Shown: positions 3,029 to 55,587 of the stretch, in pieces
Position numbering within the stretch: position 1 is the stretch's first letter
Layout of the letters: every line of letters starts with the position of its first letter
Origin: a virus
Reading direction: 5' to 3' (one strand)
IMG/VR virus record: IMGVR_UViG_3300049491_000716
Coordinates: 16,305 to 80,304 of that record
Length of the DNA stretch: 64,000 nt
The notes under the pieces: generated by a model
Database searches by the model: none
Told to the model about the DNA's origin: nothing
Seen by the model: the letters and a program-made list of their open reading frames with translations, nothing else
Made by a program: the position numbers and the translations under genes

Positions 3029-4087
3029 ATGAGCAACGAACTCGAAGTCACCAAGCAAGCCATCGTCGAACAAGACACCAGTGCGGCGGGCCTGATGTTC
3101 ACGCCTGGCGCCATGCAGCAACTGGTCGCCGTTGCCGACTTCATGGCCAAGGGTCGCGCCACCGTGCCGAAGCATCTGCAGGGCAACCAAGGCGATTGCT
3201 TGGCTGTCGTGATGCAGGCCACCACGTGGCGCATGAACCCGTTCGCCGTGGCTCAGAAGACGCACCTCGTCAACGGCGTTCTCGGATACGAGGCTCAACT
3301 CGTGAACGCTGTCGTCAACACCATGGCGCCGACCAAGGACCGCATCAACTACGAGTGGTTCGGCGAGTGGACCCGCGTGATGGGCAAGTTCGAGGAACGC
3401 GAGTCAAAGAAGAAGGTCGACGAAGACACCGGCAAGCCACTGAAGTACCGCGTGCCGAATTGGAACATCAAGGACGAAGACGGTCTCGGCATCCGTGTGT
3501 GGGCCACCATGAAGGGCGAGGCCGAGCCGCGCGTTCTTGAGTTGCTGCTCGTGCAGTGCCGTGTCCGCAACTCGCCGCTGTGGGCCGACGATCCGCGCCA
3601 GCAGATTGCCTATCTTGCCGTCAAGCGCTGGACCCGCCTGCACTGCCCCGACGTGCTGCTCGGCGTATACACGCCGGATGAACTCGACGACGCGCCGGTT
3701 CCGAAGGACATGGGCGCCGCCGATGTGGTCGGAAAGCCTGTGGATCCGAAGAATCCTCCGGGCCTGAGCGATGCCGAGCTTGCGGCATGGCGCCGGGAAG
3801 CCACTAAGGGGCTGGCAGCCGCCGAGGCGCACTGGAAGGCCATGGGTCGCGAGTTGCGCATGAAGGCCACCATGGACCAGCAGGTTGAGATGCGCAGGCT
3901 TGCCGAGGAAGCCGACAAGAAACGCACGGTGGACAACGGTGCCGCCGAGACCAAGACGGCGCAGCCCGCCACCAATGCCCCGGCTGCTACCGTGGCCGCC
4001 AAGGCCGACCCAGCAACCGGTGAAGTTGATCCCGACTTCGTGGCCGCCATGGATCGCGCCGAGCAGGCGGCTGGCGCGAAGGCCTGA
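3029..4087 (+). CDS. recT: RecT-family single-strand annealing protein
   Basis: VPKHLQGNQGDCLAVVMQATTWRMNPFAVAQKTHLVNGVLGYEAQL and DPRQQIAYLAVKRWTRLHCPDVLLGVYTPDE; good RBS. Confidence 0.9.
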   Translation: MSNELEVTKQAIVEQDTSAAGLMFTPGAMQQLVAVADFMAKGRATVPKHLQGNQGDCLAVVMQATTWRMNPFAVAQKTHLVNGVLGYEAQLVNAVVNTMAPTKDRINYEWFGEWTRVMGKFEERESKKKVDEDTGKPLKYRVPNWNIKDEDGLGIRVWATMKGEAEPRVLELLLVQCRVRNSPLWADDPRQQIAYLAVKRWTRLHCPDVLLGVYTPDELDDAPVPKDMGAADVVGKPVDPKNPPGLSDAELAAWRREATKGLAAAEAHWKAMGRELRMKATMDQQVEMRRLAEEADKKRTVDNGAAETKTAQPATNAPAATVAAKADPATGEVDPDFVAAMDRAEQAAGAKA

Positions 4088-4090
4088 CCC

Positions 4091-4993
4091 TTGATCTACG
4101 TCCAGTGCGAGCAAGGCGATGCGGACTGGCACCGGGCCCGTTGCGGCCGACCGACCGCTTCGCTTTTCCACATCATGCGGGAGAGCGCCAGGAACAAGCG
4201 CGGCCCCAACGCCGGCGACTGGAGCGACACGCAGAAGAACCTCGCCTTCAAATACGCAATCGAGCGCAAGAGCGGTGAGCCGCTGGACGAAGGCTTCGAG
4301 ACTTTCTTCATGCGCCGCGGCACGGCGCTCGAGCCCGAGGCGCGCCAAGAGTACGAGAAGGAATTCGGCGTTTTCGTGACGCGCGTTGGCTTCGTGATGA
4401 CCGACGACGGCAACTTCGGCGCCAGCTTGGACGGCACGATTGACAACGACGGCAGCCAAGAAATCAAGTGCTACCTGCAGCCCATGAAGTTGCGTGCCAT
4501 TCACACGACCGGCGACATCAGCATGGTCATGGACCAGTGCCAGGGTGGCCTGTGGATCAGCGGCCGCAAGTGGATGGACTTTTGCCTGTACTGCCCGGCC
4601 CTGCGCAGCATCGGCAAGCAGTTGTGGGTGAAGCGCATCTACCGCGATGACAACTACATCGAAGCGCTCGAGGCCGACCTTTGGGCGTTCAAAAGCCTGA
4701 TTGACGAATACGACAGGATCCTGAGTCTTCCCTACGACTCGTCTGCGTTTGAAGTGCAGCCACGGGTGGTGGTCGAGAAGGCCAGCAAGCGGACAGCGAC
4801 ACCCGCGCCGATCGCGCAGCCGCCTGTCGCGCCTGTCTCGCGCTTCGCCGCCCTTTCCGCCCGCATCGCCGCCGCGCCGAGCCGCGCATCCTGCGACCTG
4901 ATCCTTGACGGCGCCAGCGACCTGGATGCCATTGAGTACGCGGCGCTGGTTGGCAAGGCGAATGAGCGGTTTCCGGCAGAACAGGCGGCCTGA
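4091..4993 (+). CDS. YqaJ/lambda-type exonuclease
   Basis: EQGDADWHRARCG, MRRGTALEPEAR, GASLDG, EIKC, QCQGGLWISGRKWMDF; follows recT. Confidence 0.9.
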   Translation: MIYVQCEQGDADWHRARCGRPTASLFHIMRESARNKRGPNAGDWSDTQKNLAFKYAIERKSGEPLDEGFETFFMRRGTALEPEARQEYEKEFGVFVTRVGFVMTDDGNFGASLDGTIDNDGSQEIKCYLQPMKLRAIHTTGDISMVMDQCQGGLWISGRKWMDFCLYCPALRSIGKQLWVKRIYRDDNYIEALEADLWAFKSLIDEYDRILSLPYDSSAFEVQPRVVVEKASKRTATPAPIAQPPVAPVSRFAALSARIAAAPSRASCDLILDGASDLDAIEYAALVGKANERFPAEQAA

Positions 4994-5534: not shown

Positions 5535-6026
5535 GTGAGCGACCAGTTCGTCACCGTAATCGCTACCGAGGAAGGCGCTCGCGCAGCCTTCATCGCGGCC
5601 ATGAACCATGCCAAGTGCATGTTTCTCAACGGCGAGCGCGTCGAGCTTCGCGTCGGGCCAGCGCTGGACCCGATCCGCGCGAAGCAGCGCAAGTTCCTCA
5701 AGGACATCGTGTTCGGCCAGATCGCTGAACAGGTCTGCGTCGGCGAGAAACGCGAGCGCTTCACCAAGGAAATCTGGGCCGAGTTCTTCCGCAGGCGATT
5801 GCTTGGCGACCGCTTCGAGATGCGTAAGCTGCCGGGCGCCAAGAAGGCGACGCCACACAAGGTACGGAACTCGACTGAAGAACTCGGCGTGCGCAAGTAC
5901 GCGGCCTACACCGACCAGGTGATCGACATTGCCGTTGCCGAACACGGCGTGGAGTTTGTATTCGAGACAGGTGAGCGCGAGGCCGTTCGTCACGTCTCCA
6001 AGAAAGACCGTCAGCCGCAATCGTAA
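5535..6026 (+). CDS. NinB/YbcN-like recombination accessory protein
   Basis: R-x-x-Q...QIAEQ...W-x-E-F-F...STEELGVRKYAAY pattern. Confidence 0.55.
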   Translation: MSDQFVTVIATEEGARAAFIAAMNHAKCMFLNGERVELRVGPALDPIRAKQRKFLKDIVFGQIAEQVCVGEKRERFTKEIWAEFFRRRLLGDRFEMRKLPGAKKATPHKVRNSTEELGVRKYAAYTDQVIDIAVAEHGVEFVFETGEREAVRHVSKKDRQPQS

Positions 6027-6113: not shown

Positions 6114-6314
6114 ATGACGGACGAAGAGTTGGACCACACACCAGTCACCAAGGGCAAGTACAGCGGCAAGACGATGAGCCAGATCGCTGAGATTGACCCA
6201 GCCTATGTGATCTGGGCATGCGGCGAGTGGAAGCCGATGCCGTGCAGCAAGTTGCTGCTGCGTGACTGCAAGAAGGACATCGCTGACTCGCGCCGGCCGC
6301 GCGGCAGCGCTTGA
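6114..6314 (+). CDS. DUF3820-like small protein
   Basis: GKYSGKTMSQIAEIDPAYVIW motif. Confidence 0.55.
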   Translation: MTDEELDHTPVTKGKYSGKTMSQIAEIDPAYVIWACGEWKPMPCSKLLLRDCKKDIADSRRPRGSA

Positions 6315-6399
6315 CACGGAAAGGCCGGAGAGGAATCGAAAGACAAGGCACGGCCAGCAAAAGCGTGGCTCGGCAGGAACTGACTTCATTGGAGAACCC

Positions 6400-7896
6400 A
6401 TGAGTGAGCAAGTAGCGGAGAACCCGCAGATTGAAGTGCTGGATGCGGCGCCGAAGATCACCACCGAGGTGGCCGAGTACACCAAGACGGCTGCCGGCCT
6501 GGCCGATCTTCATCGTCGATACGGCAACGTCGCATGGACGGTTGACACGAAAAAAGATGAGGACGCCGCGCGTGCAGTTCGTAGGGAATTGGTGTCGTTG
6601 CGAACCGGACTCGACAAGCTCCGCAAGGACATGAACGCCGACGATCAGGCGCGCATTGCCCTTCGCAACACCGAGGCCAAGCGCATCACAGCCTTGATCG
6701 AAGCGCTCGAGGCGCCGGTGGATGAGGCGATCAAGGCCAAGGAAGATCGCATTGAACGCGAGAAACAAGAGCGCCTACAGGCCGAGGCCGCTCGCATCGC
6801 CGCACTGCGCGCCAGCATTGACGACATTGCGTCGGTCGCGACTCGCGCCTCAAGCCTTTCGTCTCCGGCCGAGTTGGACCGCAAGATCGAAATGCTTGTC
6901 CGCGTGGAGATCACGGAAGCCGCTTTCTCTGAACTGAAGGATCAGGCCTTCGTCGTGAAGGCCGAGGCACTGCGTCGACTCGAGGACTTGAAGGTCTCTG
7001 CTGTGGCCCGCGAAGCCGCCGAAGCCAAGGCCCAGCGCGATGCCGAAGAACTCGAGAAGCTGCGTGCCGAGGCCGCCCAGCGCGAAGCCGATGAAGCCGC
7101 TGAGCGCAGCCGCGTGCTGGCCGAGCGCCACGCCCGAGAAGCCCGGCAGCGCCTGCATGACGACTTCCTTGCCGACCTTCGCCAGCAGATGCGCGGCACC
7201 CTCACCTGCAGCGCCGACCAGGTTTCCCAGAAGATCGAAGCCGTGAAGGCCATGGTGCTGCCGGCCGGGCTGGACGATCTTGCCGCCACGGCAGAGTTGG
7301 CGAAGGCCGACACTCTGGAAGAACTGACCGAGCTGCACGCCGTGGTCGTGCGCCGCGAGGAAGAACAGCACGTGGCTCGCGCCGAAGCCGATCGCGTGCA
7401 GCGCCAGGCCGATGAAGTCGCGGCTGCGCAGAAGCGTATTGATGACGCCGAAGCGCAAAAGGAAGTTTCCAAAAGGGCGGATTTTTTGGATCGCACTCTT
7501 CAAGGTCTTGCGACTGAAGAATTCAAGCAACTGATGAGCGGCGAGACGGCTGCAATCATTGAACCGAAAACCGAAGGCTCACCCGAACTCGCAAAGGCAT
7601 TTGACGATATTGCAGCGCTGGAACCGTCTGCGGCGCAGTTCAATGGCTGGACTGAAGTTCAAGAACCCGATCTTCGCGACACTGTTGACCCGCGGCCCGA
7701 CATCAAGCTTGGCGACATCGCCGCCAGGCTCGGCTTCCCGCTGTCCGAGTCATTCGTCACCGAAGTCCTCAACATCAAGCCGGCTGGCTTCATCAAGCGT
7801 TCCGTGATGTTCCGGGCTGCCGACTTCGACGAGATCTGTTTCGCCTTGACTCAACACATCATCCGCGTGACGACCGCGCATCGGAGGCCGGCATGA
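6400..7896 (+). CDS. Long coiled-coil phage protein (DUF1351-like N-terminus)
   Basis: GGAG RBS; Ala/Glu/Arg-rich helical sequence. Confidence 0.7.
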   Translation: MSEQVAENPQIEVLDAAPKITTEVAEYTKTAAGLADLHRRYGNVAWTVDTKKDEDAARAVRRELVSLRTGLDKLRKDMNADDQARIALRNTEAKRITALIEALEAPVDEAIKAKEDRIEREKQERLQAEAARIAALRASIDDIASVATRASSLSSPAELDRKIEMLVRVEITEAAFSELKDQAFVVKAEALRRLEDLKVSAVAREAAEAKAQRDAEELEKLRAEAAQREADEAAERSRVLAERHAREARQRLHDDFLADLRQQMRGTLTCSADQVSQKIEAVKAMVLPAGLDDLAATAELAKADTLEELTELHAVVVRREEEQHVARAEADRVQRQADEVAAAQKRIDDAEAQKEVSKRADFLDRTLQGLATEEFKQLMSGETAAIIEPKTEGSPELAKAFDDIAALEPSAAQFNGWTEVQEPDLRDTVDPRPDIKLGDIAARLGFPLSESFVTEVLNIKPAGFIKRSVMFRAADFDEICFALTQHIIRVTTAHRRPA

Positions 7897-8461: not shown

Positions 8462-8733
8462 GTGCGCCAGACCATGGCAGCCCTGCGCGATGCCATGCTG
8501 AAGGCGAGGCAGTCATGAGCGAACTGAAGTTCTGCAAGGATTGCCGGCACTTCTATGACGATGCTACCGAGCACGTCTACCCACTCTGCTCACACCCGAA
8601 TGCGCGCGGCGAGCCAGACATGGTGACCGGAGGCCGCAATCGCCCAACCTGCGACTTCGCCCGCCGCACCGAGGGCATGTGCGGCCGCGAGGCTCGCTGG
8701 TATCACGAAATTCACACTGAAGGGAAACCATGA
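8458..8733 (+). CDS. Hypothetical Cys-rich protein
   Basis: CKDCRH...CSHP...CGREARWY; translationally coupled. Confidence 0.6.
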   Translation: MSAPDHGSPARCHAEGEAVMSELKFCKDCRHFYDDATEHVYPLCSHPNARGEPDMVTGGRNRPTCDFARRTEGMCGREARWYHEIHTEGKP

Positions 8734-9071
8734 AACGCATCTTGAAAACAACCGCGCTGCTTGCAGCCTTGGCATCTGTCTCCGCATGCACCGTGATCCA
8801 GCCGTCGTGCTGCGCTCAGGCTTGCGCATGCCAGCAACCGGTGGCGGCGGCTCCGATCGTTGCGCCGCCGAGTCATTCGACGCCGCCCGCGATTCCGGTG
8901 GTGGCAGCCGTGGCCCCCAAACCGCCCGCCGTGAAGCCGCCGCCCGTGGCAGTAACGCCTGCGCCGCCGCCGGCTCACAGCAAGCCGCACCCGAAGCCGC
9001 CGGCACCGCCCCCGCCTCCGCCCGCACCCCCGAAGCATTCGCCTGGCAAGCCATGCGTCAAGAAGTCCTGA
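8730..9071 (+). CDS. Proline-rich lipoprotein
   Basis: Signal peptide ending VSAC, Cys cluster, long poly-Pro tail. Confidence 0.65.
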
Positions 9072-9096
9072 ACCCATTCAACCCAAGGGGGTCACC

Positions 9097-9582
9097 ATGA
9101 AAACCAATCGCAATTTCTCCGGCTTCACGTTGATCGAAGTCCTCATCGTCGTGGCGCTGATCGGCATCCTGGCCGCCATCTCGCTGCCGGTCTACCAAGA
9201 CTACGTCAAGCGCACGAAGCTCACCGAAGTCCTGCTGGCCGCATCAACCTGCCGCACCGCGGTTACCGAGGTCGTGCAGACTGCTGGCGTCCTGCCGGCA
9301 GCCGGTGCGTGGGGATGCGAGAGCGCGACACCGACTTCCAAGTACGTGGCTGCCGTCGAGACCGATGCCTTTGGGGCCATCCACGTGCTGGTGTCCGGCA
9401 TCGGCGACAAAAACATTGACGGCCACTACGTGAGCCTCGTACCCTTGGCTACCGGCGACGTTCCGCCTGTGGCCGGCGACACCATCTTCCGCTGGGTTTG
9501 CGGCAACCAAGCCGTGCTTGGCACCAGCACTTTCGTGACCGACATCCCTGCCAAATTCCTGCCGGGCTCTTGCCGCGGCTGA
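9097..9582 (+). CDS. pilA: Type IVa major pilin
   Basis: Class III signal peptide G|FTLIE with E5, hydrophobic helix, PVYQDY, four Cys, ending KFLPGSCRG. Confidence 0.92.
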
Positions 9583-9610
9583 CCTTCAACTTCTGACTGC
9601 GAGGTAATCT

Positions 9611-10612
9611 ATGAGCCTGCTTCCTGCCGCCATGAAATTGGCCGACGACATCCAACCGCTGGGCCCACCGATTCGGCGCCAGCCCGAGTCTAAGCCTGAT
9701 GGGGCAGTCTGCGATCAGATCATGGCCAGCGTGTTGACGCTGATCAAGATCAACAATGGCTTGGACGGCATGCTCGCGAAGTCGAATCCTTCGAGGCTTC
9801 TCAAGGCGAAAGCAGTCGAAGACTTCCGGAAAGACTACTTGGTGGAGGCTCGTATCACCTACGCGAAGGCTACAGCCGAACGCAGCGTCTTTGCTCAGGT
9901 CTGCGAAGAAACATCGCAATCCATTCTGTCGTCAATTCAAGAAAGCGGCGAGGTCAGCGGTGAAGACTACTCAAGGACGAAGACAGCAGATCCAACAACC
10001 CCGAAAGCCCACATGAAATTCGAACTCACGAACCCTACGACGGTCAAGCTCAAGCACGTCAACGCCCGCAAGGAGAACCACGGCGAGGCCAAGGTTCTAG
10101 CCATGGATCTGCGGCTCTGCTGGACCACGAACAATCGCGCTCTGGATGCGATGTTTCCAGGCTTGCGCCAATCTCTCTTTGCCGCCCTGCCGATCGGCGA
10201 ACTGGAAGACGACGAACTCAGCGGCTATACGCTTCGCATGGAGTTTGGCTTGGGCGGAGAGAAGTCCGACACCGTGGTCAAGGTCTGCGTAGTGAAGGGG
10301 TTTTCAGTTTCGCCCATTGAAGGCGGCAGCGTCGAAATTGAGTTTTCGGTTTCTTCATCGGCTGACATCACTGGTGAGGTTTCGGGTCGATTCAACGACT
10401 TCATCCAGCAAGACATCGTCATCACCCTGCTCGCCCCCACCGTGCTGGCCACCGACCTGATCGACGCCAGCGCCGGCAGCGGGGCTCCCGGCACCGGCCC
10501 GGCCGATGAACCCGAGAAGCCGAAGAAGGCCAAGAGCAAGGCCGTGATTGACGCAACGGAAGCCTTCATCCAGCGCAACACCGATGCCGACGGTGCCGCC
10601 CTGCCTCACTAA
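9611..10612 (+). CDS. Hypothetical phage protein; probably two genes in one frame (second start at 10013)
   Basis: GAGG RBS at 9611; internal GAAAG...ATG at 10013 begins MKFELTNPTTVKLKHVNARKENHG. Confidence 0.55.
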   Translation: MSLLPAAMKLADDIQPLGPPIRRQPESKPDGAVCDQIMASVLTLIKINNGLDGMLAKSNPSRLLKAKAVEDFRKDYLVEARITYAKATAERSVFAQVCEETSQSILSSIQESGEVSGEDYSRTKTADPTTPKAHMKFELTNPTTVKLKHVNARKENHGEAKVLAMDLRLCWTTNNRALDAMFPGLRQSLFAALPIGELEDDELSGYTLRMEFGLGGEKSDTVVKVCVVKGFSVSPIEGGSVEIEFSVSSSADITGEVSGRFNDFIQQDIVITLLAPTVLATDLIDASAGSGAPGTGPADEPEKPKKAKSKAVIDATEAFIQRNTDADGAALPH

Positions 10613-10844: not shown

Positions 10845-11048
10845 GTGAACATCGAACTTCTGCCGTGCCCGTTCTGCGGGAGCTTTCATGTCTCGGTTGC
10901 CGATGTCGGGACTTCGGCTTGCTCCGTCTTGTGCGGCAACTGCGGAGCCGAAGGCCCTTTTGCTGAGGACGTGGATGCCGCAGCCAACGCATGGAATGCC
11001 CGCACGCTCATCGGTGGCAAAACTGTGTCAAGTGATATTCCTGCATAG
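10845..11048 (+). CDS. Lar-family restriction alleviation protein
   Basis: LLPCPFCG...CGNCGAEGP...AANAWNAR. Confidence 0.8.
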   Translation: MNIELLPCPFCGSFHVSVADVGTSACSVLCGNCGAEGPFAEDVDAAANAWNARTLIGGKTVSSDIPA

Positions 11049-15537: not shown

Positions 15538-15711
15538 TCAATGAGTCGGGGGTAGCGGAATTTCGGTCTGGAACTTGCCGTCGGCATCGACCATCACGCC
15601 TTTGGCTGCGCCTTCGACTTGTCGCAACACGGGCTGCGCCTGCGGCTTTTCGGATCGGATTGGCTTACCGAGAACGAAGTCGTCGGCGTCGTCTTGGTCA
15701 AGGTCTTTCAT
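15538..15711 (-). CDS. Small hypothetical protein
   Basis: ATGA overlap with the endolysin stop. Confidence 0.45.
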   Translation of the reverse strand: MKDLDQDDADDFVLGKPIRSEKPQAQPVLRQVEGAAKGVMVDADGKFQTEIPLPPTH

Positions 15712-16253
15712 GGAACTCCCAGTGCAAGTTTGGCGGCGCCCCAAAGGGCGATGCGTTGGTCTAGGTGGGTGAGCCCGCCGTTGATGCGGCGGGTGAGTCC
15801 GGTGAAGTCGCCGTTGTCGGCGTAGGCGTTCAGGTGGTTGGATGCCCAGAACCAGGCCGCGCTGCGAGACGCGAGGCCGGGCTCGGCCAGTAGTTGCGGG
15901 AATGCTTCGAGGTCGACGCCGAGGGCGGCGCCGCAGCGCCTGTAGTTGGCGCGGCCCGTCACCTGCAGAAGGCCGCGGCCAAGGAAGCGGATGCCATCGC
16001 CGGGCTGCGTGTTCCCGAGATCGGCGGCTTTCTTGCCGGGCGGCTCGTATCGCCGCTGAGCAATCGTTGGGCCCCACAACTCGGTCAACCAATGAAGGCC
16101 GCCGCTTTCGTGGCCAATCTGAGCCAGCCAAGCCGCCTGACGCCGCGGGGTGTCAATGCCGAACTCCGTCATGGCTGCCGTGATGAACGGCAAGAATCTG
16201 GACGCCCGGTCAATCCGGGCGCCGGTGCAGGCCACGAGCGTCTGCGGCGTCAT
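15708..16253 (-). CDS. Endolysin, glycoside hydrolase family 19
   Basis: LAQIGHESGGL, GRGLLQVTGRANY, SAAWFW, TRRINGG. Confidence 0.92.
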   Translation of the reverse strand: MTPQTLVACTGARIDRASRFLPFITAAMTEFGIDTPRRQAAWLAQIGHESGGLHWLTELWGPTIAQRRYEPPGKKAADLGNTQPGDGIRFLGRGLLQVTGRANYRRCGAALGVDLEAFPQLLAEPGLASRSAAWFWASNHLNAYADNGDFTGLTRRINGGLTHLDQRIALWGAAKLALGVP

Positions 16254-16254
16254 C

Positions 16255-16533
16255 TCACTTCGTCGGCGGCGTAGCCTTGGCTGCCGGGATGCTGCCGGAC
16301 ACTTCAGCCGGCGCATCGGGGCTCGGCTCGATCGGCTCTGATTCCTCCAAGGCGACGCCATCGAAGAAGTAGGCCAGCGGCACCTTGGCGTTGGCGATGA
16401 TGGCGCCGATCAGCGTACCGACCATCGTCATCTGTGTCGGCGTCATGTTGGCGAAGGTCACCAGCAGCACGCAGGCGAACAGCATGGCGGTCATGCCATA
16501 CGCCAGGACGGCGCGAACAGTCTGTGAGTTCAT
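16255..16533 (-). CDS. Holin candidate
   Basis: Two TM segments, immediately upstream of the endolysin. Confidence 0.65.
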   Translation of the reverse strand: MNSQTVRAVLAYGMTAMLFACVLLVTFANMTPTQMTMVGTLIGAIIANAKVPLAYFFDGVALEESEPIEPSPDAPAEVSGSIPAAKATPPTK

Positions 16534-34237: not shown

Positions 34238-34888
34238 TCAATCGCAGGTCATCAGGTAGTCGCCGCTCATCTCCTTGCGCACCTTGTAGCCCAAGGATTG
34301 AAGATAGGGAACGGCGTCGGTGTCGCCGATGCCGTAGCGCACGGCGTGGCCCTTCTTCTGTTCGACGCAGATCACCGGCTTGCAGCGTGCGATGGTTTCC
34401 TCGGCGCCGCGGAGCACGAACAGTTCATGGCCTTCGGTGTCGATCTTGATCAGGTCCACTCGGCTCAGCGCGAAGCTGTCCAGCGTGTGCATCGGGATGT
34501 CGCCGTCGCCGTCCACGCGGCTGTCGCCTGAACTGGTCGGTTCGGTGCGGATGGCAACCATGCCTTCGTGATCACCCAGCGCGCAGGCGTGAAGCGTGAT
34601 GTTGTCGCAGGCAAGCGTGTTGGCCAAAAAGCACTCGCGATGCGCAGCCACCGGCTCGAAGGCGTGGACTTCGTCGAACTCGTGCGACAGGTTGAATGAC
34701 CACAGACCCACGTGGCCACCAACGTCGATCGCGACGCGCTTCTGTTTGCAGAGGCCCATCGCAGCCACCTGCTTCTGGCCTTGGTAACTCGCGCGACCGT
34801 TCAAGTGCATACGCACCTTCGGGTTGGCCATCCAGATGGGGAGGTGGGCTTCGCGATCGGGGAAATACCAGCCGTCAGTCTTCAGCAC
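34238..34888 (-). CDS. FkbM-family methyltransferase
   Basis: AIDVGGHVGLW, AFEP, IKIDTEGHELFVLRGA; likely GTG start at 34888. Confidence 0.88.
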   Translation of the reverse strand: MLKTDGWYFPDREAHLPIWMANPKVRMHLNGRASYQGQKQVAAMGLCKQKRVAIDVGGHVGLWSFNLSHEFDEVHAFEPVAAHRECFLANTLACDNITLHACALGDHEGMVAIRTEPTSSGDSRVDGDGDIPMHTLDSFALSRVDLIKIDTEGHELFVLRGAEETIARCKPVICVEQKKGHAVRYGIGDTDAVPYLQSLGYKVRKEMSGDYLMTCD

Positions 34889-35619
34889 AGAATCTGCTCC
34901 AGGTTTGTTTGAACTTCGTCGACCGTAATGGCCAGCATGGATGCGCGGCAACCAGCGCAGGGAACTCGAGAGCCGCAGGCGCCGCCGGCGTGCCGCAGGT
35001 TGCGGTGCTGCGGATAGCCGGTGTAGTCGGGGTGGATGAACTCCGAAAAGAGCACAACCGCTGGGATGTTCAATGCGGCCGCCGCGTGACCGAGGCCGCC
35101 CTCGGCGCCAACGAATGCCCGGCTGACCGCCAGCACCGCCATGGCATGCCGGAAGGTCGGCGTCTCGACGAACTGCACGCCATTCAAGCGCTCGGTGGCT
35201 GGCTTGCCGATCTGAATGCACTGGCCGGCGTTGCGGTCCGCGAGTTCCTGCCAGCGCTCCCAGATCCAGGCCTTGTTGGAGCCCGGAACCTTGGTGCATG
35301 GTTCGATCAGGATGTGGCCGGCGTGCGGCGCCGCCCACGTTCGCTCGCCATGGCTCAGGTAGACCTCGCCGGGCTCGATCTGCCATCGCTTCCAAGTCCA
35401 CGCCGTGGCTGACTTCGCCGCGATGTAGGGCCGCACGCCGCCACCGTTGATCAACTTCACGGCGCCGCGGTCGCCGGCTCGGGCGATGCGCGGGTTGTTC
35501 TCGAAGACCTCAGACCACTGGTGCCGTCCGTCCCTGCCGAGCACCATCACCTTGCGTTTCGTCTCGACATTGAGTTGCCGAACCTGTGCAGTGCACATCA
35601 GCCAATCGCCGACGCCCAT
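34882..35619 (-). CDS. GT9-like (heptosyltransferase-fold) glycosyltransferase
   Basis: MGVGD, NNPRI, NK-x-W...WQEL, FVGAEGGLGHAAAALNIPAVVLF, CAGC...ITVDEV. Confidence 0.8.
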   Translation of the reverse strand: MGVGDWLMCTAQVRQLNVETKRKVMVLGRDGRHQWSEVFENNPRIARAGDRGAVKLINGGGVRPYIAAKSATAWTWKRWQIEPGEVYLSHGERTWAAPHAGHILIEPCTKVPGSNKAWIWERWQELADRNAGQCIQIGKPATERLNGVQFVETPTFRHAMAVLAVSRAFVGAEGGLGHAAAALNIPAVVLFSEFIHPDYTGYPQHRNLRHAGGACGSRVPCAGCRASMLAITVDEVQTNLEQILC

Positions 35620-35626
35620 GACAGCC

Positions 35627-36430
35627 TCAGGCGCCGCGGCGGGTGTACTTGCGCTTCGGGCGCTCCTGCTCTTGGCTTGTGGCGTCAGGCAGCAGGTCTT
35701 GCTGGGGTTCGGTGACTTCGGGTTGCAGGGTCACCGGTTCGGCATCATGCATCGTCGTCACGTCCAGCGCCACCGGTTCCGCGGCGGCATCCTGAAGCAT
35801 GGCGTTGAAGCCCGGCATCGTGTCGAAAACTTCGGTTTCCGTAGACACGTCGGCTTCGACGTGTACAGTTTTCGGAGTTTCCTGAACACGTCGGCGGAAG
35901 TAGCCCTGCCATTCGCCGCGCGGGCCCTCGCCTTCGGTTTCCAGGTCGAAGCCTTCGCTGGCCATGACAGCCAGGATGTCGTGCGGCACGTTCTCGCTGC
36001 GCAGGTCGCGGATCACGGGGCCGTAGGGCGGCAGGCGGATGACCACAAGGTCATCACAAGCCGCGGCCAACATGGAGCACACAGCGCTCGGGTTCTTGAG
36101 TTTGTGAAGCGACGCGAGCATCACGATGATGTCGTATCGCTCGTCTTCCGGGTGAGCATAGTGGTTCAGATTCGCCTGTTGAAATTCGCAAGGCAAGTCG
36201 CCGGCCAACGTTTTTGCAACCGGTATGTACCAATCCACGATCTCCAAGCCCTTGCAGAACTTGGCCCCAGCTTTCGCCAACTCCATGGAGATCAGGCCCT
36301 CTCCGGCGCCAACGTCAAGAACGGTTTTCCCGGGAACTTCTTTGAGCAACTGACCCAAGCCGGTCATCTGCTCATCAATCGTCCTGTCTCCGTCTTGCAC
36401 GCCTTCGATCTTGAACCAGCCTTTTTTCAT
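35627..36430 (-). CDS. Class I SAM-dependent methyltransferase with acidic tail
   Basis: GKTVLDVGAGEG, YDIIVMLASLHKL; GGAG RBS. Confidence 0.8.
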   Translation of the reverse strand: MKKGWFKIEGVQDGDRTIDEQMTGLGQLLKEVPGKTVLDVGAGEGLISMELAKAGAKFCKGLEIVDWYIPVAKTLAGDLPCEFQQANLNHYAHPEDERYDIIVMLASLHKLKNPSAVCSMLAAACDDLVVIRLPPYGPVIRDLRSENVPHDILAVMASEGFDLETEGEGPRGEWQGYFRRRVQETPKTVHVEADVSTETEVFDTMPGFNAMLQDAAAEPVALDVTTMHDAEPVTLQPEVTEPQQDLLPDATSQEQERPKRKYTRRGA

Positions 36431-36520
36431 TGTTTGCTCCACTAAAATAGGCGAGCCCCTGAAGCGTGGCAACGCGACAGGGGCCCTGATCACACCTTGA
36501 CCTGCTTCATAGGCCACAGC

Positions 36521-37039
36521 ATGACTGTTGAAAATTCTCTCACAGCGGAACGTCTCCGCGAACTTCTTCACTACGACCCGGCCATCGGCGTCTTCAAGCG
36601 CATTCTTGAACTAAGTCGAAGGCGTCGCGACAAGGTCGGCAGCCTAACTTGGAACAAGTACCTGCTGATCTGTGTTGATGGTAAGCAGTACCGTGCTCAT
36701 CGATTGGCTTGGCTCTACATGACTGGATCTTGGCCAACCAGCGACATTGACCACAAGAATCGGATCAAGACGGACAACCGATGGACGAATCTTCGTCAGG
36801 CCACCAGAAAGCAAAACATGGAGAACACTGGCCTGCAGAAAAATAACAAATCAGGCATTTGTGGCGTGTATTGGGATACCAACCGAGAGCGATGGCACGC
36901 GATGATTCAACACAACAAAAGGATGATCCACATCGGACGGTTCGTGGCGTTTGAGGATGCAGTGAAGGCTCGCAAGGACGCTGAAAACCTCTACTTCACT
37001 CATCACTTGAAAGAGCCGACCACGCAAAACCAGATCTGA
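36521..37039 (+). CDS. HNH homing endonuclease with AP2 domain (antisense to the late operon)
   Basis: YRAHRLAWLY, IDHKNRIKTDNRWTNL, NNKSGICGVYW. Confidence 0.9.
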   Translation: MTVENSLTAERLRELLHYDPAIGVFKRILELSRRRRDKVGSLTWNKYLLICVDGKQYRAHRLAWLYMTGSWPTSDIDHKNRIKTDNRWTNLRQATRKQNMENTGLQKNNKSGICGVYWDTNRERWHAMIQHNKRMIHIGRFVAFEDAVKARKDAENLYFTHHLKEPTTQNQI

Positions 37040-37754
37040 ACTCGTCAAGGCTCCACTGCTGGTCGGCCAGTTGGTTCGCCCACTCGTGGCGGCCATCAGG
37101 CGTCGGCAGGTTTTCGATCTGCTCAAGCGTGCCGCTCATGGGTCGCGCTGAGCAATCATCCGATTCAACAACGACTGGTATGCCCGCCAGCAGCGCAGTG
37201 ACGGCTGCGGCTGACGACCAAGTGACCAGCGCATGTGCGCCGACCAAGTCTGCAGCCAGCGTTGCAGAGGACTTGCTCTTGTTTGCCGACCACGGCCGGA
37301 CACGGATCTCGCGGTCAGTGACCGTCTTGAGTCGCTGCAGCGTCTGTTCAGTCCAGTCAAATTCGACTCCAGCCAAGGTCTTCATGAAGTGGGCCGACTG
37401 GGGGCACACGACGATGTGGCTGCCGCTGCTGCGCCACGGCTTGATCTCAATGCCGAGCGCGGCAAAGCGCGTGCCGTCACTGGCGCCCTCGGCGATCGGC
37501 TGCAACATGTTCTTGGCGACGCGGAAGTAGGCTTCGCGAGCCGAGTCGAACAGGCTGCCGTCCGAGTAGAAGATGGTGCGTCCGTCTTGCGATCCCTGCC
37601 ACGCCTCCAGGTTGCCGGCCGTCACGCCGTAGAAGAACGATCCGCCTTCGCTGCGCAGCTTGTAGGCAATCTGGCCATTGCAACCACGGGCAAAGGCCAA
37701 GCAGATGTCGGCACTCTTCTGCTTGTGCGGAACCGGGTAGGCGGTCACGATCAC
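36996..37754 (-). CDS. Capsule_synth/KpsS-like GT-B domain protein
   Basis: IVVCPQ, IRVRP, ALVTWSSAAAVTALLAGIPVV. Confidence 0.6.
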   Translation of the reverse strand: MIVTAYPVPHKQKSADICLAFARGCNGQIAYKLRSEGGSFFYGVTAGNLEAWQGSQDGRTIFYSDGSLFDSAREAYFRVAKNMLQPIAEGASDGTRFAALGIEIKPWRSSGSHIVVCPQSAHFMKTLAGVEFDWTEQTLQRLKTVTDREIRVRPWSANKSKSSATLAADLVGAHALVTWSSAAAVTALLAGIPVVVESDDCSARPMSGTLEQIENLPTPDGRHEWANQLADQQWSLDEFRSGFAWSALSSDE

Positions 37755-38530
37755 GATGCCAACTTTCTCAGGATCCTGGCGAAAGGCTCGCCGCTCTCAA
37801 TGTCGGCCACGCTCCATTGTGCGTGGGCCATGCGCGAGAAGGCATCAAGCCGTGACTGATCGTCACGCTTCAACTCGGCCAGCCCGTCAGACCAGCGCGT
37901 CGCGGCGCCACCGCAGATCCAGTGCGGCGCCGAGTAGACCACCGGCACACCCTCGATCAGTGCCTTTACCCCGCTGGCGCTGCTCCACACGAAGCACGCC
38001 TCGCAGCCTGCCAGTTCGGTGTCAAGCGTCATCTTTGGCGGGAAGCGGCCCGGGTGGCGGCGAATGCGAACCTGAAGGCCCATTCCCCGCAGTTGCACCG
38101 TAGTGCGGTCTTCCCATCCGTGCGGGCTGGCCATCTCGGTGGAGCCGACGCCGCGCTGACCACATACCAAGACGTGCTTTCCCTTCTGCCAAGGCTTGAA
38201 GTTGATACCGAGAAGCGAGAGGCGGTCATCTTGTTCCACGGGGAACCAGCCGCTTCCGTTGTGGCCGCCGACGGCGATGGCATAGTTCGGCCGGCCTTCG
38301 CTGTCTTGGCCGTAGTAGCCGTTCTCGCACACCACCACGGTGCCGCCCTTCAGTTCCCAGTTGCGGGCCAACTCCTGTTCGGCACCCTGCCGATTCCAGA
38401 GGATGAGCATGTCGCGCTCGTCCTTCGGGTCACCGGCAACAGTGACGGCGTAGCCGAGGCGGCGGAGCCCGGCTTCGAATGCGTCGCGTCGGTATTCCGG
38501 CTTGAACCGGATATTGCAGAGAGCGATCAA
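37751..38530 (-). CDS. Capsule_synth/KpsS-like GT-B domain protein (paralog)
   Basis: CENGY, VLVCGQ, IRRHP, VWSSASGVKALIEGVPV, AQWS...GE. Confidence 0.6.
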   Translation of the reverse strand: MIALCNIRFKPEYRRDAFEAGLRRLGYAVTVAGDPKDERDMLILWNRQGAEQELARNWELKGGTVVVCENGYYGQDSEGRPNYAIAVGGHNGSGWFPVEQDDRLSLLGINFKPWQKGKHVLVCGQRGVGSTEMASPHGWEDRTTVQLRGMGLQVRIRRHPGRFPPKMTLDTELAGCEACFVWSSASGVKALIEGVPVVYSAPHWICGGAATRWSDGLAELKRDDQSRLDAFSRMAHAQWSVADIESGEPFARILRKLAS

Positions 38531-39270
38531 GCCAGGGCTTCCTTCAAGTCGGCGAGTCGGAAGCACGTCAGGCGCGTTGACCGCGTGCAGTTCACCACCT
38601 CCACGCCGGCCTTCTTGATGTCGTGCGCCAGCGGGTCAAATGCCTGAATCCAGAGTTCGAAGAGGTAGTTCGGGATGCCTGTCAGCGGCTTCGGGTGATC
38701 GCTGTGCCAGTGCTTGCCGTGCATGTCGAAGCCCAGCAGGATGATCTTCTTGGCGCCGGCCTGATACGCGAGGTTGATCGCCTGGTAACCGCCGTTGCGG
38801 CCTTGGTTGATCACGCCGGGCGTCTTGTTCAGGCCTGAACCCGGCCGGCTTTCGATGTGCTTGACGCCTTCGTGGGCGACATTCTTGTCTTGTGTCCAGA
38901 ACTCGGATTTGCTGACGCGGCGCGCTTCGCCGATGTACTGGTTCCACCACGGCGCATCGCATGCGTAGAGGACGTCCGCCCACGGCGCCAGCATGAAGGT
39001 GGTGTTGATCGCGATGACCCGGCGGCCGCCCGCGGCTTCTCGCCACTCGCGCACCAGCTCGCAGTCGGCCAATTTCAGGCTCTGCCCGCTGGCCAGAATC
39101 ACGACTGTGTCGCCGGCCCACTCGAGGCCGCGCCACGCGAAGCCGCCAAACGGGCGGGCTTCACCCGTCGCGATCATGGCTTCTGCCGTGGTCTGATCAG
39201 CCTCAAAGGTGGACCCTTCAAAGATGGTGCCGACGGCATGGCCGATCGGCTTCAGCGCGATCATCTTCAT
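38527..39270 (-). CDS. DUF115/MptE-like (Maf/GT-related) protein
   Basis: VVILASGQSL, VIAIN, ADVLYACD, GGYQAINLAY-GAKKIILLGFDM. Confidence 0.7.
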   Translation of the reverse strand: MKMIALKPIGHAVGTIFEGSTFEADQTTAEAMIATGEARPFGGFAWRGLEWAGDTVVILASGQSLKLADCELVREWREAAGGRRVIAINTTFMLAPWADVLYACDAPWWNQYIGEARRVSKSEFWTQDKNVAHEGVKHIESRPGSGLNKTPGVINQGRNGGYQAINLAYQAGAKKIILLGFDMHGKHWHSDHPKPLTGIPNYLFELWIQAFDPLAHDIKKAGVEVVNCTRSTRLTCFRLADLKEALA

Positions 39271-52341: not shown

Positions 52342-52911
52342 CTATGCCCAGCCGCCGGGGAAATACGAGTTGCAGGATCCGCTGCCGGATCCACCGCCAC
52401 CGCCACCACCGCCGGCGCCGGCGCGACCGCGGGGACCGGCGGGACCGCGAAGGTCAACCCACTCGCCCCATTCGCCGCCCGGCAGTTCGAAGCGCAACTT
52501 CGTGCCGTCCCATTCGTGCAGCGGGATGGCGCCGGTGTCGCCCTTAATGCCGTCGGGCCCCATGAAGCCGCGCTCGCCGCGCGGGCCACGTTTGCCTTCG
52601 ATGCCATCGGCGCCGTTGCGGCCATTGATGCCAGCGTCGCCCCTCTCGCCGCGGGCGCCGCGCAGGAAGGCAAGCCATTCCGCCTCGGTGCCTTCAAATC
52701 CAGCGGTCTGCGCAATCTCAAAGGCAGACTTTCCGTTCAGGCCGTCAATGCCGCGGTCGCCGCGGATGCCGGCGCCATCCTTGCCGTTGATGCCGTCGAG
52801 GCCATCTCTGCCGTCAACGCCATCGCGGCCATCTCTGCCATCTCGACCGGGACGAGCTTTAGCGATGATCTCTTCGATCAGCGCCGCCGTTTCAGGCGCC
52901 AGAGCACTCAC
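52342..52911 (-). CDS. Collagen-like protein
   Basis: Gly-X-Y repeats; GKSAFEIA...GFEGTEAEWL motif shared with 39267-40940. Confidence 0.75.
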   Translation of the reverse strand: MSALAPETAALIEEIIAKARPGRDGRDGRDGVDGRDGLDGINGKDGAGIRGDRGIDGLNGKSAFEIAQTAGFEGTEAEWLAFLRGARGERGDAGINGRNGADGIEGKRGPRGERGFMGPDGIKGDTGAIPLHEWDGTKLRFELPGGEWGEWVDLRGPAGPRGRAGAGGGGGGGGSGSGSCNSYFPGGWA

Positions 52912-54331
52912 GGGCAAATCGCGCGATCAGGTCAACAGCCAAGTCGCGCACCTCATCGCTGACTTCGTCATCAGCGCTGGCTTCAATTGACTTGACCGGG
53001 GCCGGAGTTGGCTCGGCCGGCAGCGCGGCGGGGGCCGGAGACGGAGGCGGCACACTGCCAGGGATCGGCTGCTTGGCCAGCGCGGCGATCGGGAATTTCT
53101 GCTGCTGCATGTACGGCGTCTTGCCGCCTTCGACGGGCGGCAGATTAACGCTGCGGCGGGCTTCGTCGGGAGCCAAGTAGCCGGCGTCCAATTCGATCTG
53201 GTTCTTCTGTGCAATCTGGAGTGGATCCATGCGCAGCAGGCCGTCCAGGTCCAACTCGATGCCGAGTGTCTGGGGGCCGCCAGTGAGTCCGAGGCCTTCG
53301 TCCAGCAGCAACTCGATGTTCTCGATCAGGACTTGCAGCGTTTGGCTGTAGTAGTCCTGGTTCATCTGCGCCATATTGGCGTACTTGATGCCGGAGTCGC
53401 TGGCGATCTTGTGCAGCGGCACATGGAAGCAACGCGCGACGTCCTCGACGGTCCAGCGCAGTTGCTCGATGAGTTGCGCCTGTTGGGCGGGGATTGTCAT
53501 CGGCTCGTACTTCAGGCCGTCGCCGGTCACCAACAGGCGGCCAAGATTGCCGCCGCTGAAGTTGCTCTCAAAATGGGCCTTGAGACGCGCTGACGTTTCA
53601 TCGCTGATCGTTCCGGCGGCCGTGAGGTGCCCGCTGGGTCGGCTCATGTTGTCGAAAAACTTGGCCGAGTTGGTCTGGATACGGCCACCCTGCGTAGCCG
53701 AGATCGCGCAGGCATAGATCGGGCCGACACCGATCAGCGGATGGAAAAAGCAGATGGCGCGGTCGTGGATGACCTCGCTTGCCGGGACCGTGATGCTGTT
53801 TTGCGTGCCAGTCAGGCGGTTCATACCGCACTCGTAGAACACGCTGCCGTCGTCTGCCACCAGCGCCTTCACGAGACGCGGGTCCAAGATGAACATCTGG
53901 ACCACGATGCCACGGTTGTCGCGAACCTTCAGCACGTAGGTATTGCCGTACAGCAGTTTCGACTGAACCCACTGGTTGATGAACTGGATGCGCGTCTGGT
54001 ACTGATTCGGCTTGCGCAGCACCGGGCTGAATGCGGCGTTCGTGGTTTCCTGCCAAACGCCTTCCGAGAAAGCGACGAGCTTCAACCGCAGTTTGGAGAT
54101 GTCGTCGGCGATGAGCGTGACGCAGGCGTAGACGGCACTGAAGGCGAGCAGGCTGTGCTGCGGGTCGGCGATGACGTTGGACTGCCAGGCGCCGGCATAG
54201 GATTCACGGATCGGGCCAAGCCACGAACTGCCGTTGACGGCGTAGGCCGGCACGTTGGTCACCGGCACCGAGGCCTTCTGCAGCGCTCCGATCGCGCTGG
54301 AAACAGTTGACAGCAGACTGAACTTAGCCAC
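52892..54331 (-). CDS. Portal protein (HK97 family)
   Basis: SAVYACVTLIA, LRKPN, YGNTY, EVIH, FFDNMSRPSG, VARCFHVP. Confidence 0.92.
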   Translation of the reverse strand: MAKFSLLSTVSSAIGALQKASVPVTNVPAYAVNGSSWLGPIRESYAGAWQSNVIADPQHSLLAFSAVYACVTLIADDISKLRLKLVAFSEGVWQETTNAAFSPVLRKPNQYQTRIQFINQWVQSKLLYGNTYVLKVRDNRGIVVQMFILDPRLVKALVADDGSVFYECGMNRLTGTQNSITVPASEVIHDRAICFFHPLIGVGPIYACAISATQGGRIQTNSAKFFDNMSRPSGHLTAAGTISDETSARLKAHFESNFSGGNLGRLLVTGDGLKYEPMTIPAQQAQLIEQLRWTVEDVARCFHVPLHKIASDSGIKYANMAQMNQDYYSQTLQVLIENIELLLDEGLGLTGGPQTLGIELDLDGLLRMDPLQIAQKNQIELDAGYLAPDEARRSVNLPPVEGGKTPYMQQQKFPIAALAKQPIPGSVPPPSPAPAALPAEPTPAPVKSIEASADDEVSDEVRDLAVDLIARFARECSGA

Positions 54332-54545
54332 GTGTCATTCCCCGCCAAAGAGTGATGCCGAAGATCAGCGGCAACGGCGCCGCCGAGATGAGCGACCAGC
54401 CAAGGCCGAAGACGATGTAGATGCCAGCAGACAGTGAGGCGGCTCCGGCGAGCACGCAGATCAGGGCGGTCGCAAAAACGACGGTTTGACCATCGTTCGC
54501 GGCGGCCGGCTGCGGGCCCAGCATCACGGTTTGCGTTTCGTTCAC
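54324..54545 (-). CDS. Small membrane protein
   Basis: Two hydrophobic segments, just before the portal. Confidence 0.6.
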   Translation of the reverse strand: MNETQTVMLGPQPAAANDGQTVVFATALICVLAGAASLSAGIYIVFGLGWSLISAAPLPLIFGITLWRGMTRG

Positions 54546-54778
54546 GGCTGCGCGGTCAGGTCGCGGCGGGTGTACGTGCGCTTGGCGCGCTGCGGTTCGA
54601 CGGCTCCGATGTCGGGCGTCAATTCGCGGACTTGGTAGAAATCGGCGCGGCGCGCAAAGCCGATGGCGCGCAACTCGTCGGCGTCACGTTCGCAGTCGGT
54701 TTCGAACGGGTCGCCGTTCTTCAACCATACGCCGTTGTAGCAATGGCTGCCGGTGGCAATCATCTTGACTTTGGTCAT
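54542..54778 (-). CDS. Small head-associated hypothetical protein
   Basis: KRTYTRRDLTA C-terminus, typical of genes after the capsid gene. Confidence 0.6.
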   Translation of the reverse strand: MTKVKMIATGSHCYNGVWLKNGDPFETDCERDADELRAIGFARRADFYQVRELTPDIGAVEPQRAKRTYTRRDLTAQP

Positions 54779-55569
54779 GGGAGTGTTTCCTCAATTGGGG
54801 CAGAAGCGGCTGCCTTCCTGCGCGCCCATCCGATGCGTTTTGCTTCGGAGATGGCGGCGCTGCGTTTGGCCGCGGCGATTGGGTCTGCCCATGCGGCTTT
54901 GGTCGCAGCGGCCTTTTTCTCAGCCATGCCAGGGCGAGACCAGACTTCTTTCCAGTGAACGCTTGATGCAGCCTTTGCCTCATCGCAGGCATAGAAGGCA
55001 CGAAGTGCTTCAGACTTTTTGGCTTTGGTGGTTGGCCTGTTGGCAACCTCGCGTTTTTTCTGCAAGCCTTCTGGACTTGCGTGCGCTTGACGCAGAGCGG
55101 CTACGCGACGCTGGCGTACCTCAGGATCAGCCCAGGCCTTCACCGCCCTGTCTTTGGCCGACAGGGTTTGTTCTGGCGTCTGAATTTGGTCGTTCCCACC
55201 ACCGTCGCTTGCGTTTGTAAGATCGAAACCGAACGACTTCGCCGATGCGATGAAGAACCTCTCGGCGTCTTGCCATGCCATCTCTCGTGGCACACGAAAG
55301 AAAATCAGCAGTTGCGGAGCAAGCCCTGATGAAAGCAGGCTGCGCACCCACTGGCATTGATGGCGGTCGCTACGACCCGATGCAGCGATGCTGATGTGTT
55401 GCATCAACCGCTTCTTCGGCCTGTTCGATTTCCCGATGTACCGAACCTCATTTGTCTTTGGGCAGCACAAACAGTAGATGAATGAAGGATCTAGTTCAGC
55501 TACTGTTTGTGGGCTTGAAGATGCCCCGGATGCTTTGATCTTTTGGATCTTGCTTCCGGGGCCGCTCAC
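54775..55569 (-). CDS. GIY-YIG-like homing endonuclease (start uncertain)
   Basis: FIYCL...VRYIGKS...RLMQH...E-x-x-FI...LTN-x-x-DGG; AWADP repeats. Confidence 0.8.
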   Translation of the reverse strand: MSGPGSKIQKIKASGASSSPQTVAELDPSFIYCLCCPKTNEVRYIGKSNRPKKRLMQHISIAASGRSDRHQCQWVRSLLSSGLAPQLLIFFRVPREMAWQDAERFFIASAKSFGFDLTNASDGGGNDQIQTPEQTLSAKDRAVKAWADPEVRQRRVAALRQAHASPEGLQKKREVANRPTTKAKKSEALRAFYACDEAKAASSVHWKEVWSRPGMAEKKAAATKAAWADPIAAAKRSAAISEAKRIGWARRKAAASAPIEETLP

Positions 55570-55587
55570 ACTTGCTACCTGCTCAGG

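Follow-up and report, generated by a model that had tools for sequence, protein, structure and literature searches.

A homologue of the type IVa major pilin PilA encoded in the early operon of a freshwater sediment phage, a candidate mimic or replacement of the host pilus receptor

Type IV pili rank among the receptors that phages use most often. Several small phage proteins inhibit their assembly, with Tip, Zip and Aqs1 acting on PilB and PfsE acting on PilC, and in other phages early lytic proteins of the T5 Llp and T4 Imm-Sp type block the receptor or the entry step, which prevents superinfection and the loss of progeny on debris. The phage-encoded pilin described here presumably shares with Tip, Zip, Aqs1 and PfsE the aim of denying the receptor to pilus-dependent phages, but these proteins are unrelated to it and the pilin would act as a mimic of a structural subunit. 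With T5 Llp and T4 Imm-Sp the analogy is functional only, with no relation in sequence or structure, and these proteins bind or mask the receptor and do not replace it. Sztanko et al. (2026, Cell Rep, PMC12952977) showed that pili take up prophage-encoded FimU copies (P-FimU) at their tip and that phages binding there are blocked. On sequence evidence only, the same study described PilA-like genes of Xylella fastidiosa prophages and of virulent phages belonging to four groups. Incorporation into the pilus, blocking phage adsorption, is proposed there for the phage PilA-like proteins (P-PilA) and demonstrated for P-FimU only. The original prediction for this DNA took ATPase inhibitors to make up most of the described phage anti-pilus factors, a premise that is no longer current.

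We analysed a 64-kb stretch of DNA (the window), corresponding to bases 16305-80304 of an 80,304-bp IMG/VR virus record; all coordinates are given in window numbering. The record is linear with a CheckV completeness of about 68%, and the sequencing runs searched for this DNA gave one DNA run, a freshwater sediment metagenome that is probably its source, with no RNA run listed. Like P-PilA (PMC12952977), the window pilin is a lone major-pilin homologue of a tailed phage without pilus machinery, with a pilin-like predicted fold and roughly 50-70% identity to host-type PilA. It differs from P-PilA by its probable host clade, the Comamonadaceae-type Burkholderiales of freshwater sediment, and by its gene, which belongs to the recombination/early operon of a phage of lambdoid appearance. 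In the same way as P-FimU from the F10-like Pseudomonas aeruginosa prophages, it is a phage copy of a pilus subunit relying on the host machinery. However, P-FimU is a minor, tip pilin made from a prophage promoter at host-like levels, whereas the window pilin is a major (shaft) pilin, with its best matches among PilE/PilA, and appears to be the product of an early lytic gene.

The pilin gene encodes a protein of 161 aa from the earliest start codon available in its frame. The predicted leader peptide, MKTNRNFSG, is basic and is followed by the mature start FTLIEV, with Phe at +1 and Glu at +5, so that the prepilin peptidase PilD is predicted to cleave between Gly-1 and Phe+1. Four cysteine residues are present at precursor positions 52, 74, 135 and 159 (codons at 9250, 9316, 9499 and 9571), and each of them occupies a column that is invariant in an alignment of 75 relatives. 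We found also that the protein retains 32 of the 32 family-invariant columns, including Gly-1, Phe1, Glu5, Pro22 and both cysteine pairs. The full prepilin cleavage site, the E5 residue and the four cysteines announced by the original prediction are thus all present. The Pfam Pilin model PF00114 matched with 56.1 bits (cut-off 22) over profile positions 2-108 of 108, N_methyl PF07963 with 34.1 bits (cut-off 21.2) and the NCBIfam prepilin model TIGR02532 with 28.7 bits against a cut-off of 16.3. In a phmmer search of PDB sequences, residues 10-160 aligned with the entire gonococcal/meningococcal PilE (2hi2) with an E-value of 1.4e-15; Cys135 and Cys159 aligned with the D-region disulphide pair of gonococcal PilE, and a disulphide is predicted here as well, while the second pair, 52/74, is family-specific.

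The AlphaFold2 (AF2) model, built with 75 relatives, has a mean pLDDT of 93 and consists of a helix (12-62) and four strands (84-89, 95-99, 111-117 and 132-135), which gives the lollipop fold of an alpha1 helix of about 53 residues packed against a four-stranded antiparallel sheet. With this model, Foldseek returned Neisseria PilE (1ay2/2hi2) as the best match with a TM score of 0.70, followed by Burkholderia, Dichelobacter and Pseudomonas PilA, and the top 17 matches were all major type IVa pilins. The resemblance to Neisseria PilE (2HI2, 1AY2) extends to the fold, the four cysteines and the C-terminal motif at 31-35% identity; with the cellular PilA of Comamonadaceae/Sphaerotilaceae (Polaromonas, Hylemonella, Curvibacter, Ramlibacter, Acidovorax), the window pilin shares family, fold, four cysteines and C-terminal motif, and it is distinguished from them in being phage-encoded, in the absence of a sigma-54 promoter and in eight changes in the N-terminal part of alpha1 (alpha1-N).

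Other assignments were considered and rejected. The GspH model TIGR01708 scored 26 bits against a cut-off of 80 and covered the N-terminus alone, and the model of the type II secretion pseudopilin GspG, TIGR01710, scored 27.1 bits against 88.85, on the N-terminal helix alone. No Pfam match to a minor-pilin head domain (GspH/FimU-type) was obtained with the pilin at E <= 0.01, and a headless mini-pilin is ruled out by the full 161 aa with a complete head. The identification as an intact type IVa major prepilin is therefore confirmed by the Pfam, PDB, AF2 and Foldseek results, as had been predicted. The features of the pilin gene and of its surroundings are listed in Table 1.

Table 1 Coordinates of the pilin gene, its parts and the surrounding genes in the 64-kb window
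Feature	Position	Strand	Basis or remark
Helicase/methyltransferase	upstream of RecT	+	first in listed + strand order
RecT	3029-4087	+	recombination module; PHROG 561, 149, 72 for RecT/exonuclease/NinB-like
Exonuclease	4091-4993	+	recombination module, PHROG
NinB-like gene	5535-6026	+	recombination module, PHROG
phrog_16469 protein	6262-7896	+	followed by several small genes before the lipoprotein
Predicted Pro/Ala-rich lipoprotein, upstream neighbour of pilin	8730-9071	+	signal peptide with lipobox VSAC
Shine-Dalgarno AAGGGGG	9085-9091	+	5 nt before pilin ATG; read from sequence
Prepilin gene, type IVa major pilin, PilA/PilE-like	9097-9582	+	Pfam, PDB phmmer, AF2, Foldseek
Class III signal (leader) peptide, 9 codons, Gly-1 last	9097-9123	+	sequence, N_methyl/TIGR02532 matches
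Alpha1 helix, mature residues 1-53, with Glu5, Gly14, Pro22	9124-9282	+	AF2 helix 12-62
Globular head: alpha-beta loop, four-stranded sheet, C-terminal D-region (Cys135-Cys159), Cys 52/74	9283-9579	+	AF2, invariant Cys columns, PilE alignment
333-aa protein, downstream neighbour of pilin	9611-10612	+	no family hit (Pfam, PHROG, NCBIfam)
Lar-like restriction alleviation gene	10845-11048	+	Pfam PF14354, 48 bits; followed by more small genes
Endolysin	15708-16361	-	PHROG 181, E 1e-65

The pilin gene lies in the phage early region, in agreement with the original prediction, since RecT, exonuclease, NinB-like and Lar genes are on its strand and opposite to a convergent endolysin gene. The endolysin marks the late/lysis side, where the early operon ends, and beyond it the minus strand carries the tail, sugar-modification, portal, capsid and terminase genes. 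The 16 kb preceding the window are phage-like (RusA and others), with no host genes found. The GC content of the pilin gene by codon position, 0.60/0.49/0.80, is like that of the neighbouring phage genes. In an independent assembly of the probable source run, one Logan contig of 9,292 nt carries the pilin together with at least 2.4 kb of the phage genes that follow it; upstream the assembly breaks at 8931-8952, about 150 nt before the pilin, in a Pro-codon repeat of the lipoprotein gene, and the depth on the two sides of this break is similar (24 versus 27). The phage genes on both sides and the Logan contig, which does not bridge the join 150 nt upstream, led us to discard a host flank or a chimeric contig. 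We confirmed in this way that the pilin is encoded inside the phage genome, in the early operon. That no other pilus genes would be found nearby holds across the whole 80,304-bp record (about 68% complete): the single N_methyl match is the pilin itself, no Peptidase_A24 (PilD) or T2SSF (PilC) match was found, and the best T2SSE match for PilB/T, at 11.5 bits, is sub-threshold. As the phage is without PilB, PilC and PilD, the pilin could act only via the host machinery.

The two neighbours of the pilin gene were also considered. The start codon of the lipoprotein gene shares bases with the stop codon of the gene before it (ATGA), and the lipoprotein frame has the highest GC3 among the overlapping frames; in the predicted 113-aa product, the lipobox is followed by clustered cysteines and an extended tract rich in Pro and Ala. 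It gave no Pfam, PHROG or NCBIfam hit, and no homologue was found at the other pilin loci. The adjacent lipoprotein and pilin, both predicted to be envelope-targeted, could form a surface-remodelling pair. Homologues of the 333-aa protein in the viral locus L147 (loci compared here carry L-numbers and are IMG/VR stretches, with some cellular ones, L014, L016, L017, L018 and L051) adjoin RecT and exonuclease, apart from the L147 pilin, and this protein is part of the recombination/early module without a specific tie to the pilin. A conserved lipoprotein-pilin-333-aa cassette was rejected, because the lipoprotein is absent at other pilin loci and the homologues of the 333-aa protein are located elsewhere.

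We then compared the pilin with its relatives. The best matches among 5.8 billion proteins are pilins of equal length with 60-70% identity, the named ones being from Curvibacter, Caldimonas, Polaromonas, Hylemonella, Ramlibacter and Acidovorax (Comamonadaceae and kin). The cellular Comamonadaceae PilA proteins are 60-65% identical to the phage pilin and no sequenced cellular PilA exceeds about 65%, which argues that the capture was not recent. A tblastn search of the pilin against 50,697 GenBank phage records returned nothing at 1e-5 and a megablast of 20 kb gave one irrelevant 137-bp match, so that no cultured relative was found; a host search through the capsid in 401 Burkholderiales genomes gave 4 weak matches of 32-40% identity. 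The host is best described as probably Comamonadaceae-like, judging from the pilin itself.

Relatives of the pilin are encoded on 190 IMG/VR stretches. The closest one of known context, L131, with 69-71% identity, is in another phage, where the gene order is annealing protein, RecE-like exonuclease, NinB and, further on, the pilin, opposite to an endolysin, a layout as in the window. In L005 the order is Erf, exonuclease, phrog_16469, SSB, HNH, pilin and integrases, and the layout with an annealing protein, an exonuclease and then the pilin is common to the window, L131 and L005. Elsewhere the pilin gene is found immediately before an SU10-type portal gene (L003, L004, L006), next to a D5-type primase (L007, L008), in a Mu-like phage (L009) and, in L194, whose complete 61-kb genome has terminal repeats (DTR), within the late operon. 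Phage hallmark genes thus stand beside the pilin in at least five unrelated types, SU10-like podophage, Mu-like, D5-primase, lambdoid recombination operon and complete DTR phage. In a 201-sequence tree, the phage pilin belongs to a 13-member clade with an SH-aLRT support of 89, in which the query and L131, the only members whose context is known, both come from viruses. The viral label requires 11 changes on this tree, at least 4 of them being forced by well-supported branches, which indicates that pilins entered phages repeatedly and are able to persist there.

Many IMG/VR contigs match the first 45-65 residues of the pilin only, with 45-69% identity (L151, L153, L170, L172, L174, L176-L180, L182, and further L193, L195-L197, L199, L200 and L202). 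These may encode mini-pilins that lack the head or differ in another way, comparable to the truncated PilA-like phage proteins of PMC12952977.

The comparison with L131, the closest viral relative, gave a dN/dS of 0.206/1.19 = 0.17, an approximate value as the dS of 1.19 is near saturation, which indicates that the phage pilin is under purifying selection. This bears on the view that the gene is a neutral passenger, a host pilA gained by illegitimate recombination, unused and decaying. Pilin genes are short, abundant and often adjoin integration hot spots, and their position varies among phages, all of which would fit such a gain. However, the frame is intact with every invariant residue retained, the dN/dS of 0.17 was obtained against another phage copy, the GC3 of 0.80 is like that of the phage neighbours, the spacing is tight with a strong ribosome-binding site, the absence of a sequenced cellular PilA above about 65% identity speaks against a recent capture, and the recurrence in many phage lineages argues for selection. 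We consider a passenger very unlikely.

We next examined the regulation of the gene. A sigma-54 motif, TGGCAC-N5-TTGCW with at most 1 mismatch, was searched 55-90 nt upstream of the cleavage-site codon. A sigma-54-type promoter was found at 36 of the 55 cellular homologues, those without it being mostly second copies within tandem arrays. In contrast, the motif was found at none of the 14 genes formed by the phage pilin and its 13 closest viral relatives (0/14 versus 36/55; Fisher p = 5e-6), and none was present on the plus strand of the window between 4500 and 15000. The sigma-54 promoter is typical of cellular pilA genes and is not a defining trait of the protein family. Some more distant pilins on viral contigs have kept a sigma-54-type promoter at 55-95 nt, the cellular distance (L140, L141, L144, L145, L147, L152, L165, L167, L171, L179, L181, L191, L192, L199); these are either host flanks of prophage calls or cassettes captured with their promoter. 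Among the cellular loci, tandem pilA variants, two or three, were observed in several Burkholderiales genomes (L014, L016, L017, L018, L051), and Ramlibacter paludis has three pilA copies of 152 aa each within 2 kb; in such arrays a clear sigma-54 promoter is usually present at the first copy only.

The intergenic gaps around the phage pilin gene are 25 nt upstream and 28 nt downstream. Scans for consensus sigma-70 promoters and for terminators, which are insensitive and gave no more sites than shuffled sequence, found nothing adjoining the pilin. With short gaps and no promoter-like or terminator-like site, the pilin is most simply read as a member of the early operon. In cellular systems PilR with sigma-54 drives pilA, and in Pseudomonas PilS interacts with PilA for autoregulation (PMC6058289). 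The absence of the sigma-54 promoter would place the phage copy outside the PilS-PilR control loop, from which it probably escapes.

This regulatory context also bears on a benefit to the host, in which the pilin would equip the infected or lysogenic cell with a functional or extra pilus, useful in adhesion, twitching, biofilm formation or DNA uptake, and thereby aid the phage indirectly. The pilin is intact and looks assembly-competent, the cellular relatives often have two or three tandem pilA variants, which implies that alternative pilins are naturally used, and integrases are found near the L005 pilin. Against this, the pilin is without its own promoter in a recombination/early operon, which lambdoid phages leave silent in lysogens, which lends no support to expression in a lysogen; the 80 kb examined yielded neither an integrase nor a repressor; the L194 pilin is in the late operon of a complete phage; and a few minutes of lytic expression would leave little scope for a gain in motility. 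We regard a benefit to the host as quite unlikely.

The N-terminal helix of the phage pilin is divergent. Over the first 32 mature residues, 122 relatives differ from the consensus by a median of 0 residues and the phage pilin by 8. All 8 substitutions are conservative hydrophobic exchanges, with Glu5, Gly14 and Pro22 unchanged, and four of them (M7L, I12L, A20S and A23V) are unique to the phage pilin in this set. Between the query and L131 the dN of alpha1 equals the dN of the head, whereas between L131 and Polaromonas, a viral-cellular pair, alpha1 evolves five times slower than the head. These eight changes could impair co-assembly with host PilA and would then favour a dominant-negative or regulatory decoy, in which the phage pilin would enter the inner membrane and be cleaved, but would then fit badly against host PilA or simply occupy PilS, PilD or the assembly platform to saturation. 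Pili would be lost or stalled together with motility, and the cell would again be left with no pilus receptor. Such a decoy would be consistent with the unusual number of substitutions and with the equal rates of helix and head, with an expression uncoupled from sigma-54/PilR, with the discussion in PMC12952977 of overexpressed pilins and truncated phage PilA-like proteins as assembly inhibitors, and with the sensing of PilA by PilS (PMC6058289). It is disfavoured by the conservative nature of all substitutions and the intact Glu5, Gly14 and Pro22, by the purifying selection on the head, both disulphide pairs and the C-terminal motif, which would be needless for a mere membrane decoy, and by the tendency of phages using decoys toward headless mini-pilins. 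A poisoning or decoy action appears unlikely to us.

We propose that the gene provides a phage-encoded copy of the host major type IVa pilin, a 'P-PilA', for which we give mimicry or replacement of the receptor an even chance of being the role. The pilin would be transcribed with the phage early operon and not from a PilR/sigma-54 promoter like that of cellular pilA. The host prepilin peptidase PilD would cleave the phage prepilin, which would enter the inner-membrane pilin pool, and the host machinery would polymerise it alongside or instead of host PilA. Since PilS senses this pool, host pilA transcription may drop while the uncontrolled phage copy continues to be made. The pili of the infected cell would then have an altered surface, or fewer of them would be usable, and adsorption would fall for pilus-binding phages, among them siblings and the progeny set free in the vicinity, resulting in superinfection exclusion and in protection of the progeny. 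The functions put forward in the original prediction, in which the phage pilin enters or poisons host pili or lowers host pilA expression through PilS, with receptor switching or superinfection exclusion as the result, are partly supported: they agree with the P-FimU and P-PilA precedents, with the promoter loss and with the purifying selection on the gene in several phage lineages. The intactness of the protein, its selection, its recurrence, the layout shared with other phages, the promoter loss and the precedent of P-FimU all favour mimicry or replacement, to which on balance we assign about half of the probability. A point against it is that mixed filaments with many host subunits may still bind phages.

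Several observations concern the other genes of the record. A sugar-modification cluster of the window, 34882-39270 (-), is collinear with one in L194 (L194:8962-12418), with five window genes matched at 35-48% identity; in L194, the pilin (38% identical to the query) lies between a methyltransferase and a GT9 gene of the cluster, which comes right after the capsid gene. The window phage and L194 are thus two related phages with one pilin each, and these pilins differ in lineage and place. L202 has two cluster genes in common and a short pilin match. No pilin O-oligosaccharyltransferase (Wzy_C) was found in the record of the window. The head module, 52892-57588 (-), has an unusual order, as transcription reaches the protease-capsid fusion (55588-57588) before the portal gene (52892-54331), and about 19 kb of sugar-modifying genes then separate the portal from the connector and tail genes. 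A pair of paralogues of about 305 aa, assigned alike to phrog_25593, was observed at 58375-59292 (+) of the window, among the minus strand head genes, and at 8677-9597 (+) of L130 (genome 8677-9597), which is the same record as the window; they lie close to opposite ends of the record at a distance of 66 kb, and each is about 56% identical to one L137 gene.

A bolder reading can be formulated, in which the pilin is a regulated switch. Free of sigma-54/PilR and with a re-tuned helix, it would silence host pilA via PilS, continue to be made itself and convert the pilus surface within one latent period. This conversion may also be coupled to the phage sugar-modification cluster, a link suggested by the single observation of the pilin placed between the methyltransferase and GT9 genes in L194. 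If this coupling were true, a new pilin and the tools for decorating the cell or pilus surface would both come from the phage. We hold this switch to be highly speculative and would give it little probability.

Phage-encoded PilA-like proteins are already known as a kind (PMC12952977), and the window pilin adds no new kind of system. The new elements here are the host clade, a gene position that recurs in three phages of lambdoid type, the loss of the sigma-54 promoter and the divergent alpha1-N; the promoter loss, the divergent helix and a position common to two other phages are not found in PMC12952977 for PilA-like genes. So far, a minor pilin of Pseudomonas is the only case in which a phage was shown to substitute its own look-alike for part of a receptor. 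Our results extend phage-borne major pilins to freshwater Burkholderiales phages and indicate that such pilins are common in IMG/VR (190 stretches) and under selection. The regulatory contrast between the cellular copies, which are sigma-54 driven, and the phage copies nearest to the query, which are not, makes a replacement of the host pilin through PilS feedback directly testable.
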